DNA of 64,000 bases from Candidatus Sumerlaeaceae bacterium (GCA_019695055.1 JAIBAT010000063.1:6220-70219); one strand, 5' to 3'; positions 1-23,488 are shown, numbered from the stretch's first letter. Program-made: numbers and translations. Notes: generated by a model not told the origin, from the letters alone.

Positions 1-346
1 TGGCGGCAATGATGAACGCGCTTGCCTTGGGGCAAAGGCGCGGATCCAACCCAAGATCGCCCACCCCGCGCGTCACCACTATGCGGATGTATCCGTCGGT
101 AATCTCATTGGCGCGGACCGTTTCGACCACGGCATCGCGCATCTCGTCCATGGTCATGGGGATCTTCAGCTTGATGAATTTCGCGGATTCCCAAAGGCGA
201 TCCAGGTGCTGATTCAGGCGGAAGACGCAGCCCTCGTAAACCCGGATCCCCTCGAAAATCCCGTCGCCATAAAGGACGCAATGATCAAATACGCTGATCT
301 TCGCCTCGTCCTTGTCGAAGAGCTTTCCGTCGAGCCAGATTTTCAT
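1..346 (-). CDS. ilvE: branched-chain amino acid aminotransferase (class IV), N-terminal portion; gene continues beyond window start
   Basis: Minus-strand translation from ATG at 346: MKIWLDGKLFDKDEAKISVFDHCVLYGDGIFEGIRVYEG... matches the class IV aminotransferase N-terminus; no stop before the window edge. Confidence 0.55.
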   Translation of the reverse strand, partial: MKIWLDGKLFDKDEAKISVFDHCVLYGDGIFEGIRVYEGCVFRLNQHLDRLWESAKFIKLKIPMTMDEMRDAVVETVRANEITDGYIRIVVTRGVGDLGLDPRLCPKASAFIIAA

Positions 347-841
347 AACGCCGCACTCCCGTAAAAGAATCGTCGGCGTCGATGAACCCGAGGAAACACT
401 CTGGTCGTCTCGTTTGACCGCGCCGAACTGTAGGATTTGAATCACAGGCCCGCAGCCCGATTTATTTCCGGATGGGTCCGACGACTTGGGCGTCGTGTAA
501 GTGACCAGTCCGGACAAAAACTAGTCGGGGAGAATTGGGAGGACAAAAAAGAAATAGTCGGGAACCCAACGTGAAAAACCGAAGTTTTCCAGCAAGCTGA
601 GCTCCCGACCGTCAGGGGGTATATGTCAGTCAGCAAGTTGCTTGCCAATAAGACCGGTCTTCTTATTCTAGCTTAATCACTGAAAATAGAGGAGTTAGTT
701 GTTTTTGGGGGAGGCGCAGACGTTTTCCATTGCAGACGCGGTCTCATTTGTGGACTCTTTTTGGGACAACCGCTGATTCGGAAGCCCCAGTTTTGCTGTA
801 AGTCGGTACGTGGGGGGCTTTAACTGGCGGTTTTAGAACAA

Positions 842-14653: not shown

Positions 14654-16027
14654 TCAGTACTTATAAACGCTGCCGCCGATATACTCGCGCATGAGGCTGT
14701 TGCGCGGGATGGCCTCCTCGTCGCGGATGGGCTCGACGGGCTCGAGGAGGTCATGGACCCGCTTGGCGCGGATGTAGGCGTCCAGCCGCGCGGGGGTGTC
14801 GTCATAAGCCGCGATGATGGACTCCATGTGTGGGAACAGGTATTTCTTGTGCACAATCAGTTCGTAGGGCAGCGAGCCATTGATGATGTGGTCGGCCTGG
14901 CCGATGAAGGGCACGATGTACTTCATCTCGCTGCGCCGAACATAGTGCCAGTGCCCCACGGTTTGGTCCGGCTGGTAGTGGCGGTGCCAGCTATCGCGTA
15001 CCATGCGGCGCAGCATGCGCAGGTCAGCCCAGCGCACGAACTCGCCGCGGGCGTCGCGGATCTGGCACAGGGCCTCGATGTAGATCTTGAATTTGAAATC
15101 ATTCGGCACGCTGGACGTCATTGGCTTGTAAAGGCCATGCAGGCTGTCCAGCAGCAGCACCTGGTTTGGCTTGAGTGAGAACGGCACCGTCTTCTCCTGC
15201 CGCAGCCCCGTCTTGAAGTCATAGATCGGTGTCTGGATCTCCTTCCCCTTCAGCAGGTCCGCCAGGTGCTGATTGATGAGCGCGAGGTCCAGCGCCTCGG
15301 GGCGCTCGAAGTCATAATCGCCAAACGCATCCTGCGGGTGCGTCTCAAGGTTGTGGAAATAGTTGTCCAGGTTCAGCGCCACGACCTCGATGCCCTTTTC
15401 CGCGAGGCGCTCGCTCATCTTGATCGTTGTCGTCGTCTTTCCGGAACTGGAGGGCCCCGCGATAATGATGATGCGAAGGTCGTTACGGCGCTTCAGCACA
15501 CGATCTGCCATGCGGTCGATTTCGGCGTGGTAGTTGGCTTCCGCCTCCTGGATCAGCCCGCCAATGCGCCCATCCCGCACCTGCTCATTCAGGCGCTCGA
15601 TGCTGTCGCACTCGTGGGCCACGTTCCAGGTAAACACCTGCCAAAGGGTTTTGTAGGGGATGGTGTCGTTGACGACGATCTGCTCGTCCTTTTCCTCGCG
15701 CTGGCGGGCGTGCTCGGTGCGATATTCGCGGTAGGCCGTGGCCACGTTCTTGTGCCCCTCGGCGTCCAGGGTCCGTACCACCATGTCCTGGATGTTCTCG
15801 ACGGTGGGGTAATCGCCGTTGCTGTAGGCCTCGGAAAGTCGCTGCACCACAATGTCCGACAACCGCTCCGCCAGGCTGCGGTCTTCCAGCTTCTGGCTGA
15901 GTTGCGCCTTGTAGATGGCGTGGGTGATGCGCTCCTGGTCGAATACGACCTGCACGCCGCTGCGCTTGACGATATACTCGGGGTGGCTGGTGACGCCCAT
16001 GGCCCCCTCCTTCGCAAAGTCTGGCAC
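14654..16027 (-). CDS. ATP-cone domain protein fused to a PRK/uridine-kinase-like P-loop nucleoside kinase domain
   Basis: N-terminal IVKRSGVQVVFDQERI (ATP-cone-like); P-loop IIIIAGPSSSGKTTTT...LNLDNYF typical of the uridine kinase/phosphoribulokinase family. Confidence 0.55.
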   Translation of the reverse strand: MPDFAKEGAMGVTSHPEYIVKRSGVQVVFDQERITHAIYKAQLSQKLEDRSLAERLSDIVVQRLSEAYSNGDYPTVENIQDMVVRTLDAEGHKNVATAYREYRTEHARQREEKDEQIVVNDTIPYKTLWQVFTWNVAHECDSIERLNEQVRDGRIGGLIQEAEANYHAEIDRMADRVLKRRNDLRIIIIAGPSSSGKTTTTIKMSERLAEKGIEVVALNLDNYFHNLETHPQDAFGDYDFERPEALDLALINQHLADLLKGKEIQTPIYDFKTGLRQEKTVPFSLKPNQVLLLDSLHGLYKPMTSSVPNDFKFKIYIEALCQIRDARGEFVRWADLRMLRRMVRDSWHRHYQPDQTVGHWHYVRRSEMKYIVPFIGQADHIINGSLPYELIVHKKYLFPHMESIIAAYDDTPARLDAYIRAKRVHDLLEPVEPIRDEEAIPRNSLMREYIGGSVYKY

Positions 16028-16128: not shown

Positions 16129-16190
16129 TGTGAAATCTGTGAATGGCTTCTTCTTTCAATTGAGAATTGAGAATTTGGAACTGAGAATTG
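16129..16190. repeat. dispersed repeat copy B, directly upstream of the dcd start codon
   Basis: GTGAAATCTGTGAATGG...CAATTGAGAATTGAGAATTTGGAACTGAGAATTG; 19/20 match with copy A in the heptad core. Confidence 0.4.
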
Positions 16191-16196
16191 TTTTCC

Positions 16197-16730
16197 ATGA
16201 TTCTCTCGGGACTCGAAATTAAGAAGCGACTCGGCGGCGACATCGACATCCAGCCCTTCGACGAGAAACTGTTGAACCCAAACAGCTACAACCTGCGGCT
16301 CCACGACGAGCTTCTCGTCTATGAGAACCACGAACTCGATATGCGCCGCGAGAACCGAGCCGTCTCACTCAAGATTCCCGCGGAGGGGCTGCTTCTTGAA
16401 CCGGGGCGGCTTTACCTCGGTCGCACTCTCGAGTTCACGCGCACGGACAACCTCGTGCCAATGCTGGAGGGGCGATCCAGCGTTGGGCGGCTTGGCCTGT
16501 TCGTCCACATCACTGCAGGCTTCGGAGATGTAGGCTTCCGCGGCTACTGGACCCTCGAGATGCTCTGCGTCCAGCCGGTCCGTGTGTATGCCGGCGTCCA
16601 AATCTGCCAGATTTTCTACCACACAGTGGAGGGCGATTTCGTCCCCTACAAGAGCGGCAAGTACCAGAACAACTCGGGCATCCAGCCCAGCATGATGTTC
16701 CGGGATTTTGAAAAGAGTGATAATTCCTGA
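16197..16730 (+). CDS. dcd: dCTP deaminase
   Basis: MILSGLEIKKRL...NPNSYNLRL...GRSSVGRLGLFVHITAGFGDVGFRGYWTLEM matches the Dcd signature. Confidence 0.85.
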   Translation: MILSGLEIKKRLGGDIDIQPFDEKLLNPNSYNLRLHDELLVYENHELDMRRENRAVSLKIPAEGLLLEPGRLYLGRTLEFTRTDNLVPMLEGRSSVGRLGLFVHITAGFGDVGFRGYWTLEMLCVQPVRVYAGVQICQIFYHTVEGDFVPYKSGKYQNNSGIQPSMMFRDFEKSDNS

Positions 16731-16753: not shown

Positions 16754-18223
16754 ATGCTGATTGATACCCATGCCCACCTTCACGGCGAGGAGTTTGACAC
16801 CGACCGCGCGGAGGTGCTTGCCCGGGCCCGCGAGGCGGGGGTCGAGCATATCGTTCTCATCGGCGTGGATGTGGACGACAGCCTCAAGGCCGCTGGAATG
16901 GCCAACGCCGATCCGCTTTTCTACGTGGCGGCCGGCGTTCATCCGCACGAGGCGGCCAAATGGAACGACGCGGAGGCCGCGCGCCTTCGCGACATCGTTC
17001 AGCGCGAACCCCGCATCGTGGCGGTGGGGGAGATCGGTTTGGATTACCACTACGATTTCGCCCCGCGCGAGAAGCAGCGGGAAGCGTTCCTGGCCCAGCT
17101 CGAAATTGCCAGGGAAGCTCGCAAGCCTGTGGTCATTCACTGCCGCGAGGCATATGACGATGTGCTGGCCATTCTGCGCGATTTTCATGGTGACCCACTG
17201 CCCCATGTGACGCCCGCCGTGCCCGGAAGTCTGGACGAACCACCGCCTACCTGCCCCACGCCTGGCTGCCCCCATCACCTTTCCGCAGGCATCATGCATT
17301 GCTACTTTGGCAGCGTGGAGCAGGCGGCCGCCTTCACGCATCTTGGATATGCCCTCGGCATTGGCGGGTCCTCCACTTTTAAGAAGGCCGAGGAGTTGCA
17401 TGAGGTCATCCGCCAGACTCCCATCGAGCATCTCGTGCTGGAGACCGACGCGCCCTACATGGCGCCCGTTTCCTTTCGCGGTAAACGCAATGAATCGGCC
17501 CATTTGCCCCTCATTGCCGCGCGCATCGCCGAGCTGAAGGGGATGACCGTGGATGACGTTGTCCGCGTGACCCGCCACAATGCGCTGGCCATGTTCCAAC
17601 TCCATGACGACGAGCCGCCCGCCATCGCCTATGTCATTCGGAACAGCCTTTACATCAACCTTACCAATCGCTGCTCGGCGCTTTGCGTGTTCTGCGACCG
17701 ATTGGGGGACGCATCGGTAAAGGGGCATAACCTGCGCATGCACAAGGAGCCGGAAGCGGCCGAGGTGATCGCAGCCATCGAGGCCCAGGGCGGCGCGGCG
17801 AAGTTCGATGAGGTTGTGTTCTGCGGTTACGGCGAGCCAACCCTGCGGTTGCCGGTCCTTCTGGAGGTCGCCCGGTGGCTGAAAGGCCCCGGCGGCGCCC
17901 GCCGCGTTCGCCTGAACACGAACGGCCACAGCGATCTCATCAACCAGCACGCGACCCTCCCCGAAATGGAGGGCCTGATTGATGCCGCCAGTATCAGCCT
18001 CAATGCTCCCGATGAGGCGACCTACAACTGGATTGTGCGACCTTTTGACCGCAAACGGGCCTTTGGGGCTGTGGTTGACTTCATCCGGGCGGCCCCCCGG
18101 CACATCCCCGACGTTACGGCCACCGCCGTGGGCATCCCGGGGCTCGACGTTCCAGCCACGGAGGCCCTCGCCCGCGAATTGGGGGTCAGCTTCCGCCTCC
18201 GCATTTTTAATGACGTGGGCTAA
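16754..18223 (+). CDS. TatD-family hydrolase fused to a TatD-associated radical SAM domain
   Basis: N-terminal MLIDTHAHLHGEEFDTDR...(TatD); C-terminal INLTNRCSALCVFCDR (CxxxCxxC) ...VVFCGYGEPTL; single uninterrupted 489-aa ORF. Confidence 0.65.
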   Translation: MLIDTHAHLHGEEFDTDRAEVLARAREAGVEHIVLIGVDVDDSLKAAGMANADPLFYVAAGVHPHEAAKWNDAEAARLRDIVQREPRIVAVGEIGLDYHYDFAPREKQREAFLAQLEIAREARKPVVIHCREAYDDVLAILRDFHGDPLPHVTPAVPGSLDEPPPTCPTPGCPHHLSAGIMHCYFGSVEQAAAFTHLGYALGIGGSSTFKKAEELHEVIRQTPIEHLVLETDAPYMAPVSFRGKRNESAHLPLIAARIAELKGMTVDDVVRVTRHNALAMFQLHDDEPPAIAYVIRNSLYINLTNRCSALCVFCDRLGDASVKGHNLRMHKEPEAAEVIAAIEAQGGAAKFDEVVFCGYGEPTLRLPVLLEVARWLKGPGGARRVRLNTNGHSDLINQHATLPEMEGLIDAASISLNAPDEATYNWIVRPFDRKRAFGAVVDFIRAAPRHIPDVTATAVGIPGLDVPATEALARELGVSFRLRIFNDVG

Positions 18224-18397
18224 ACCGGGTAAAAAACGCTTGAATGGCCCTTATGGATGGTGCTGTTCTCGACTCCGGCAGTCAGCGCCGGGGTCTGCAC
18301 AAGCAGAAATAGCCCGGTGGGTTTATGTTTTCCTGACCGTTGGTGGGGTACGCCAACTGCCATGCATTCCTAATATGAAGTTTGGAGGACGGGTTTG

Positions 18398-19117
18398 ATG
18401 TTTCGCTCCACGATGAAGGCATTTGCCGCACTGACCGCATTGACGCTGATCTTGGGCTCCGGTTCGGAAGTCTCGGCCGCCACGGCTGGCCAGGCGCGCG
18501 TTCGGCTGGTCCATGCCTGCCCCGGGCTCGGCTCGGTAAAGGCAAAGGTTAACGGCCGCTACATTACCCGCAGCCTTCCCTATGGCCAGGTGACGGGCTA
18601 CGCCGTCGCACGCCCCGATCTCGCCCTTGTCGATTTGTTTGACGCGGCGACCCAGGAGCCCCTCGAGTTTCAGTTCGAGGTTCCCGTGGACGCCGGCTAT
18701 GACTACACGGCCCTCGTGATTCGCGATGACCTTCAGCCTGACCCCAACCCGACGCTCGCCACTCCGTTCCTCGATGACGTAAACCTGGCCCTGACAGCCC
18801 ATCCTCGCGGCGGTGTAAGCCGCAACAGTTCGTCTTTCTATTTCATCCATGCCGTCCCTGATGCAGGACCGGTGGACCTGTACATTAACAATGTGCTTGT
18901 CCCGACGGGAACGATTCCTTTTACGGATTATCGCGGTCCGTTCAATTTGGGCCCCGGCGCGAATACCATCGAGGCATGGGACCCGGTGAACAACATCTCC
19001 GTTTACGGACCCACTTCCGTGAACTTCCGCAGTGGCCGCATCACGACAATCGTGATTACCGGCACACTGGACGAGTTTGATGAATTCCCGGTTGTTGGGA
19101 ATTTGTACCTCGACTGA
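18398..19117 (+). CDS. DUF4397-like secreted protein
   Basis: Signal peptide; repeated RVRLVHACPGLGSVKAKVNG / FYFIHAVPDAGPVDLYINN blocks resemble DUF4397. Confidence 0.5.
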   Translation: MFRSTMKAFAALTALTLILGSGSEVSAATAGQARVRLVHACPGLGSVKAKVNGRYITRSLPYGQVTGYAVARPDLALVDLFDAATQEPLEFQFEVPVDAGYDYTALVIRDDLQPDPNPTLATPFLDDVNLALTAHPRGGVSRNSSSFYFIHAVPDAGPVDLYINNVLVPTGTIPFTDYRGPFNLGPGANTIEAWDPVNNISVYGPTSVNFRSGRITTIVITGTLDEFDEFPVVGNLYLD

Positions 19118-19143
19118 TTGGGCCCCACTATACCGAGTTTAGA

Positions 19144-19182
19144 CCCCGGTCGGCCCCGGCGCTGACCGGGGTTTCTTCTTTT
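19144..19182 (+). terminator. rho-independent terminator
   Basis: CCCCGGTCGG...GACCGGGG hairpin followed by TTTCTTCTTTT. Confidence 0.45.
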
Positions 19183-23277: not shown

Positions 23278-23354
<77 letters not shown>

Positions 23355-23411
23355 GCAAGGGCCTTTACTCCTACTTCATGCTGCCGCTTTTATTTCGGCA
23401 GCGGGGAAAAC

Positions 23412-23488
23412 TGGTGGGTAGAGTAGGGCTCGAACCTACGACCCCCAGCTTGTAAGGCTGGTGCTCTAACCAACTGAGCTATCCACCC
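23412..23488 (-). tRNA. tRNA-Val (TAC)
   Basis: GGGTGGATAGCTCAGTTGGTTAGAGC...; anticodon loop CTTACAA; CCA encoded. Confidence 0.85.

Follow-up and report, generated by a model that had tools for sequence, protein, structure and literature searches.

A TatD-radical SAM fusion gene of the TIGR04038 family in a Candidatus Sumerlaeaceae genome: architecture, genomic context and possible function

The fusion gene and its two domains

The stretch of DNA considered here (64,000 nucleotides of a Candidatus Sumerlaeaceae bacterium, GCA_019695055.1 JAIBAT010000063.1:6220-70219, analysed over its whole length and referred to below as the window) contains a gene in which a TatD-family metal-dependent hydrolase is joined to a minimal radical S-adenosylmethionine (SAM) domain in one polypeptide. 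The gene lies between dcd and a DUF4397 gene, with an ATP-cone kinase gene in the opposite orientation beyond dcd (Table 1). The fusion gene is real, and is an intact single frame with two domains: the only stop codon in the translation is at its end, and both the list of open reading frames (ORFs) and the translation agree with the unbroken frame described in the first-pass annotation. The 489-residue product matches NCBI protein P0001 at 100% identity; P0001 is from Candidatus Sumerlaeaceae bacterium and bears the name 'TatD family nuclease-associated radical SAM protein'. A frameshift at the junction, raised earlier as a possible artefact, is excluded for practical purposes and is not credible, because all 120 of the closest homologs, which are 443-489 residues long and come from several phyla, have both domains and can be aligned over their entire length, through the junction, with invariant residues flanking it on either side (F281 ... 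Y293).

Table 1. Features of the fusion gene and its surroundings, with positions counted from the first nucleotide of the window
Feature	Position	Strand	Basis
Complete TatD-radical SAM fusion gene, stop codon included	16754..18223	+	ORF list, ATG start, 489 aa
TatD (YcfH/YabD-type, Group II) metal-dependent hydrolase domain, residues 1-285	16754..17608	+	PF01026, TIGR00010, structure matches
HxH motif, H6-A7-H8	16769..16777	+	Sequence; motif definition from PMC10085689
Lineage-specific Pro-rich insertion in TatD domain, residues 146-177	17189..17284	+	Homolog alignment, model
Inter-domain linker QLHDDEPPA, residues 282-290	17597..17623	+	Alignment of 120 homologs
Minimal radical SAM domain, TIGR04038 / IPR023821, residues 291-485	17624..18208	+	
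CX3CX2C motif (C307, C311, C314), putative [4Fe-4S] binding	17672..17695	+	Invariant in fused and stand-alone relatives
FCGYGEP, 'GGE'-type SAM motif with fourth invariant Cys, C357	17819..17839	+	Fused and stand-alone alignments
dcd (dCTP deaminase), 23 nt upstream of fusion, co-directional	16188..16730	+	TIGR02274, 111.7 bits vs cutoff 92.8
ATP-cone + PRK/uridine-kinase-like gene, divergent	14654..16027	-	PF03477, PF00485
DUF4397 gene, downstream, co-directional	18395..19117	+	PF14344
Terminator-like hairpin, 14-bp stem (9 GC pairs) + T-run	19141..19174	+	Consensus scan only

The N-terminal half had been called a TatD hydrolase of about 260 residues, and while the Pfam and NCBIfam models uphold the family call, the domain is longer, at about 285 residues. 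Both curated hidden Markov model (HMM) cutoffs are exceeded, with TatD_DNase (PF01026, Pfam) matching residues 3-282 at 258 bits (E 1e-76, cutoff 27) and the YchF/TatD model TIGR00010 (NCBIfam) scoring 248.6 bits against a cutoff of 206. The closest solved relatives are YcfH/SAV0491 of Staphylococcus aureus (2gzx/6l25; E 1e-53, Foldseek template modelling score 0.95), TM0667 of Thermotoga maritima (1j6o) and YcfH of Escherichia coli (1yix). The HxH motif and the conserved putative metal ligands are shared with E. coli YcfH, Bacillus subtilis YabD and SAV0491, a group that includes the cyanobacterial DTD3 and that supplies the best sequence and fold matches to this half of the protein. Unlike the fusion, the solved chains of YcfH type (253-265 residues) are without a radical SAM domain, and a Foldseek search of the full-length model against the PDB found no solved chain spanning both domains. 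Each of the putative ligands H6, H8, E93, H129, H182 and D232 is retained by at least 97% of the 120 homologs; in a 59-sequence alignment (A1) the last four are invariant, and H6 and H8 are nearly so (90% or more). An HxH motif defines the Group II TatD enzymes (PMC10085689), and the N-terminal HxH of this protein, together with its full set of putative metal ligands, places it with that group (YcfH/YjjV/TATDN3 type).

Reported activities of the YcfH-type enzymes extend to both DNA and tRNA. E. coli YcfH is a 3'-exonuclease on single-stranded DNA and an apurinic/apyrimidinic (AP) endonuclease on double-stranded DNA, and a triple tatD/yjjV/ycfH mutant is sensitive to H2O2 (PMC10085689). According to PMC10711561, which cites Wydau et al. 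2009, D-aminoacyl-tRNA is hydrolysed by Synechocystis DTD3 and by E. coli YcfH, and not by E. coli TatD. Because YcfH-type structures are its closest matches, the HxH motif and metal ligands are conserved, and its relatives reside in a metG operon (see below), the TatD half is, on these comparative grounds, probably the YcfH/YabD housekeeping ortholog, with the radical SAM gene as an accessory to that operon. Whereas relatives of the fusion occupy the metG-adjacent slot of YcfH/YabD, the fusion in this genome does not: dcd, not metG, lies upstream, and there is no second TatD gene within the window.

The TIGR00010 match is split into two stretches by a 32-residue Pro-rich insertion. In the alignment of 120 homologs an insertion at this site is found only in P0001-P0003, the nearest Sumerlaeaceae relatives, and is absent from P0004 onward; its sequence in P0002 and P0003 differs from that in P0001. 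The AlphaFold model renders the insertion as a disordered surface loop, with predicted local distance difference test (pLDDT) values below 50 at residues 149-176. Two Cys residues, C167 and C172, are found within it.

The linker that follows, nine residues in this protein, is of similar length throughout the 120 homologs, and the full-length model (pLDDT 91, predicted template modelling (pTM) score 0.86) is consistent with a fixed arrangement of the two domains. The compact radical SAM core earlier assigned to the C-terminal half is confirmed by both sequence models and fold. Radical_SAM (PF04055, Pfam) matches residues 301-466 at 63 bits (E 4e-17, cutoff 29.5), and the tatD_link_rSAM model, TIGR04038 (NCBIfam), reaches 233 bits (cutoff 129.7), with residues 291-485 corresponding to model positions 2-191 of 192; the modelled domain (pLDDT 92.2) adopts the partial TIM-barrel of radical SAM enzymes. 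The protein thus belongs to TIGR04038 by a score over the full model and by having a TatD hydrolase in the same polypeptide. At about 195 residues, the radical SAM domain is essentially a bare core.

All of the motifs that had been quoted for the protein are found in the translation: HAH at residues 6-8, CSALCVFC at 307-314 and FCGYGEP at 356-362. The family shows no variation in the two motifs of the radical SAM superfamily, C307/C311/C314 and G358-Y-G360-E361. Outside CX3CX2C, C357 is the sole Cys that is invariant in both fused and stand-alone members, and no second-cluster motif is conserved in either the fused or the stand-alone alignment. When aligned with MoaA, C357 falls at the T of 'TGGEP'. 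A conserved fourth Cys just before the SAM-amino-binding motif is also present in spore photoproduct (SP) lyase, a DNA repair enzyme whose radical SAM core acts on nucleic acid; there Ser142/Asp143 stand in place of the GGE motif, and the H-atom donor Cys140 precedes them by two residues (PMC3467042). The likeness between C357 and Cys140 is a positional analogy only, and no family-level sequence match to SP lyase was found.

Searches of PDB chains with the radical SAM half, as a single sequence and as a profile, returned no close solved relative and marginal generic matches only (MoaA, 1.4e-3; YydG, 0.024; PflA, 0.026; QueE, 0.5-0.7). The N-terminal domain of MoaA, PflA, the NifB core, viperin and QueE are likewise minimal cores, with no family-level match to this half of the fusion. 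The sister family TIGR04100 ('rSAM_pair_X'), whose radical SAM proteins are likewise small (~200 aa), matches over its full length at 168.1 bits; its cutoff of 262 is not reached, its members are stand-alone (for instance, P0368), and membership of TIGR04100 was rejected on the score.

Distribution and architecture of the family

Because the HMM scores exceed the cutoffs for both halves, an identical NCBI protein carries the corresponding name and the fold is confirmed, the TatD-radical SAM fusion described here is almost certainly one that has already been catalogued, and the gene an ordinary, correctly named member of its family. TIGR04038 is of the NCBIfam type 'subfamily_domain' and corresponds to InterPro entry IPR023821. 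Its CX3CX2C motif, FCGYGEP motif and fused architecture are those of the protein in the window, which differs from the family in nothing of substance, its Pro-rich insertion and idiosyncratic neighbours being its only peculiarities. The window itself consequently matters little, as public databases already name the gene specifically and correctly, and its architecture is the usual one in the family; TIGR04038 as a whole, on the other hand, is a genuine conserved unknown in at least approximately 600 species-level genomes. Literature searches on TIGR04038, IPR023821 and TIGR04100 gave one passing mention of the family and no functional study, in agreement with the first-pass statement that the radical SAM partner is biochemically uncharacterised.

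Relatives were found in at least 582 GTDB species genomes and, among metagenome sequences, on at least 594 stretches. Since pattern-based scans favour sequences that resemble their queries, scans were run from both sides, with fused and with stand-alone queries. In every sample taken, the fused state is the commonest architecture of the family. It is found in 120 of the 120 closest homologs, in 75 of 80 loci from GTDB species genomes (one more locus ends at a contig edge), in 51 of 80 metagenome loci that were retrieved with a profile of stand-alone members, and in 83 of 122 complete representatives at 50% identity, the remaining 39 being stand-alone. Orthologs with the same fused architecture, a search for which had been suggested as a check, are therefore plentiful. 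The premise that separate neighbouring genes are the rule and a fusion is something special, on the other hand, did not survive: a separate tatD gene directly upstream on the same strand, at a distance of 170 nt or less, was seen in 8 of the 80 metagenome loci. A further 9 of the 80 lack a TatD in at least 1 kb of sequence to each side, and the flanks that were examined in seven more stand-alone cases are without one (Carboxydothermus, Margulisbacteria, Syntrophothermus and four Thiodiazotropha/Chromatiales loci).

The family spans at least ten named lineages. Among its taxa are Desulfuromonadales/Geobacteraceae, Nitrospirota, Ignavibacteriales/Bacteroidota, Brocadiales, Verrucomicrobiota, Nitrospinae, Zixibacteria and Sumerlaeota, and stand-alone forms are found in Firmicutes, Margulisbacteria and some Gammaproteobacteria. 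Most of the taxa that carry the family are presumably anaerobic or microaerophilic. Parsimony on a neighbour-joining tree gave about 21 transitions between fused and split states, a crude figure to be read as an order of magnitude (~20). The use of the fusion as an argument for functional coupling of the two halves fared well in this comparison, as the linker is short, fusion and fission are repeated, and adjacent gene pairs exist.

Gene neighbourhoods in related loci

The genes that flank the relatives were tallied by all-versus-all clustering of flanking ORFs, and one representative of each cluster was annotated with Pfam. The arrangement tmk-holB-PSP1-metG immediately precedes the fusion in 28 of 80 GTDB loci, and a metG-type context, split forms included, in 25 of 80 metagenome loci; examples of the tmk-holB-metG context are Desulfuromonas versatilis, locus L009 and a Bacteroidota metagenome-assembled genome (MAG), the last with holB-metG. 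At split-gene loci the order is metG-tatD-radical SAM gene, followed by yabE-like and ksgA-like genes. The housekeeping TatD paralog classically sits in the arrangements tmk-holB-ycfH of E. coli and metS-yabD-yabE-rnmV-ksgA of B. subtilis, and the tmk-holB operon accompanies plain ycfH genes too. The family thus sits in the highly conserved housekeeping operon tmk-holB-metG-tatD, with ksgA-like genes next in some lineages, and the conserved context, as judged from gene order, points to a translation/replication housekeeping set and not to deoxynucleoside triphosphate metabolism.

Other neighbours vary with lineage, and a number of them are translation genes. The hisS gene neighbours the fusion in nine Nitrospirota loci, in mostly convergent orientation. 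Of the two closest Sumerlaeia relatives, one has pheT as a neighbour and the other has genes for a TPR protein and a MiaB-like methylthiotransferase, and TilS and a TtuA-like gene are also among the neighbours. A stand-alone radical SAM gene with no nearby TatD (262-265 bits) lies directly upstream of a gene for MnmL/YtqA (366 bits), a radical SAM protein of tRNA modification, in four gammaproteobacterial loci from Thiodiazotropha/Chromatiales (L062, L064, L069 and L070). In two of these, L064 (5980-9438) and L070, genes for the anaerobic ubiquinone hydroxylases UbiU and UbiV come after MnmL/YtqA.

Stand-alone radical SAM genes also follow gatB in Margulisbacteria and two metagenome contigs (L091, L094 and L133). 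The order in L091 (62-5624) is tsaD-gatC-gatA-x-gatB-radical SAM gene, and the 2-nt gap that precedes the last gene suggests that it is co-transcribed with the genes for the tRNA-dependent amidotransferase. In a Syntrophothermus MAG (L092, 5001-7822), the stand-alone radical SAM gene is directly upstream of genes for a DUF348-G5-3D (yabE-like) protein, an RrnaAD (ksgA-like) protein and a VEG-domain protein, and no TatD gene is present within 5 kb. The corresponding slot in Bacillus, upstream of the yabE-like and ksgA-like genes, is presumably that of yabD, which encodes TatD, and the arrangement in the MAG looks like the outcome of a fission after which the TatD gene was relocated or lost.

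Two further arrangements were noted. Five loci from Brocadiales (anammox Planctomycetota) have a gene of UPF0102/YraN-like (NERD/NucS-like) nuclease fold upstream of the fusion (1902-2396 in L024; 6573-7061 in L042) and a GNAT acetyltransferase gene downstream. In D. versatilis (L002), a radical SAM protein with a Radical_SAM_C domain (PF16199), the same Pfam pair as in MnmL/YtqA, is encoded approximately 5 kb upstream of the fusion (1-796, minus strand), where it adjoins rnc and is divergent from the tmk-holB-PSP1-metG-fusion operon; this could be coincidence.

A possible joint action on nucleic acid and its alternatives

Taken as a whole, the explanation that best fits these observations is that of a TIGR04038 fusion whose halves act jointly on nucleic acid, with a lean towards RNA or tRNA, and it is held with slightly better than even confidence. 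Its parts differ in strength. That both halves act on one nucleic-acid substrate has about an even chance of being right, with coupling between them argued by the short linker, the pTM score of 0.86, the repeated fusion and fission, the adjacent gene pairs and the shared operon. That the substrate would specifically be tRNA or RNA is a tentative proposal, and the less probable of the two; RNA or tRNA is preferred because of the varied translation-gene neighbours across lineages and the reported deacylation of D-aminoacyl-tRNA by YcfH/DTD3.

In the proposed mechanism, a two-metal site in the TatD half (H6, H8, E93, H129, H182 and D232) would bind and hydrolyse the 3' end of a nucleic acid, and a [4Fe-4S] cluster would be held in the radical SAM half by C307/C311/C314. 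Beside the SAM motif, C357 would be a candidate H-atom donor or thiyl-radical site, because it is invariant, stands directly before GxGE and is comparable in position to Cys140 of SP lyase. The shared substrate would be held by the TatD half while both modules act on it, and the role of the enzyme would be one of housekeeping, in translation-related processing or quality control under anoxic conditions. A more specific version can be drawn, although it is unlikely: the family may be an anaerobe-specific housekeeping translation enzyme, in which the YcfH/DTD3-like half works on (mis)acylated or damaged tRNA at its 3' end, and the same tRNA, or its aminoacyl moiety, undergoes a radical reaction not yet described at the radical SAM half, C357 serving as H-atom donor. 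If true, tRNA quality control or modification would gain a radical SAM activity that is new, and the window would hold one ordinary example of it.

Several considerations weigh against a joint action with an RNA or tRNA lean. The literature searches gave no biochemical data for any member of TIGR04038. YcfH also cleaves DNA, through the 3'-exonuclease and AP-endonuclease activities mentioned above (PMC10085689), and the TatD half therefore does not settle the choice between RNA and DNA. The adjacency to metG is, on the present reading, inherited from plain YcfH/YabD genes and therefore says little about the radical SAM half. Several of the neighbour observations are from single loci, and hisS is mostly convergent, which is not an operonic arrangement. 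Some stand-alone members have no TatD gene in the flanks that were examined, so a TatD partner in cis may not be a strict requirement for the radical SAM protein. Lastly, the parallel drawn between C357 and SP lyase is one of motif positions alone.

The strongest alternative is a radical DNA repair enzyme of anaerobes, in which the radical SAM half would reverse or open a lesion by H-atom abstraction, in the manner of SP lyase, and the TatD half would finish the repair as an AP endonuclease or 3'-5' exonuclease. The DNA activities of YcfH and the H2O2 sensitivity of the triple tatD/yjjV/ycfH mutant (PMC10085689) speak for such a role, as do the fourth invariant Cys, whose place beside the SAM motif resembles that of the H-donor Cys140 in SP lyase, the presence of holB and tmk (replication and dTMP) within the conserved operon, and the UPF0102/YraN nuclease-like gene upstream of the fusion in Brocadiales. 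Repair of DNA is nonetheless doubtful, with a role on RNA or tRNA ranked slightly above it as somewhat more likely, and maturase and free-nucleotide roles well behind both. Because of the YcfH/YabD partner, the repeated fusion and fission, the translation-gene neighbours and the fourth invariant Cys, the comparative picture narrows the substrates that are worth testing, with tRNA or aminoacyl-tRNA first and damaged DNA second.

It is improbable that the target of the radical SAM half is a protein, be it the TatD half or another, on which it would act as maturase or activase, for instance by installing a modification or a radical, and not the substrate of TatD. The similarities of this half are all generic core matches, the flanks of related loci contain no recurrent glycyl-radical enzyme or peptide-precursor gene, and strong conservation within the TatD half is confined to its putative metal ligands, with no obvious site of modification.

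Less probable still is an enzyme of the nucleotide pool that would work with dcd and the ATP-cone kinase, for instance by modifying or hydrolysing free (deoxy)nucleotides in a viperin-like manner. The first-pass annotation had described dcd as co-directional with the fusion and the ATP-cone kinase gene as divergent, and had suggested a nucleotide-pool context; the orientations stand by the ORF and domain calls, whereas the context does not extend to relatives, as dcd, the ATP-cone kinase and the DUF4397 gene occur in 0 of 80 related loci. Neither dcd nor the kinase is present at the loci of the two closest Sumerlaeia relatives, and a Sumerlaeaceae relative of 61% identity has different neighbours. 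A nucleotide-pool link as a conserved association was rejected on this count. Furthermore, the tmk gene of related loci belongs to the tmk-holB operon, which also accompanies plain ycfH genes, and the radical SAM core of about 190 residues presumably lacks the C-terminal extension that viperins use for nucleotide binding.

An anti-phage nuclease related to QatD of the Qat system is extremely improbable and was rejected as a reading of the gene, as the matches are weak (54.5 bits to NF041926 of NCBIfam, far under its cutoff of 230, and 42 bits to the PADLOC QatD model), the housekeeping operon context is kept across phyla, and QatA/B/C partners are not among the neighbours, for which PADLOC gave no Qat match (none of any kind for dcd and DUF4397, and only a weak mad8 match, E 1.4e-05 and 22.7 bits, for the ATP-cone kinase). 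The chance that an assembly or sequencing artefact fused two separate genes is close to negligible: a general possibility of this kind exists, and the identical database protein probably derives from the same assembly, yet the same continuous architecture recurs in hundreds of independent assemblies, with residues conserved across the junction.

With regard to the remaining features of the locus, the ATP-cone kinase is a protein of 457 residues with an ATP-cone at residues 18-107 and a P-loop kinase domain of PRK/uridine-kinase type at residues 186-383. It scores 100 bits against 220, well under the uridine kinase equivalog cutoffs, and may be an allosterically regulated nucleoside or nucleotide kinase. 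The hairpin directly after the DUF4397 gene is the strongest terminator-like structure in the region, and it is possible that dcd, the fusion gene and the DUF4397 gene form a local transcription unit. Scans for tRNA genes and Rfam families found nothing near the fusion locus, and the only RNA genes detected in the window are an adjacent pair, tRNA-Asp(GTC) and tRNA-Val(TAC), at 23278-23488 on the minus strand.

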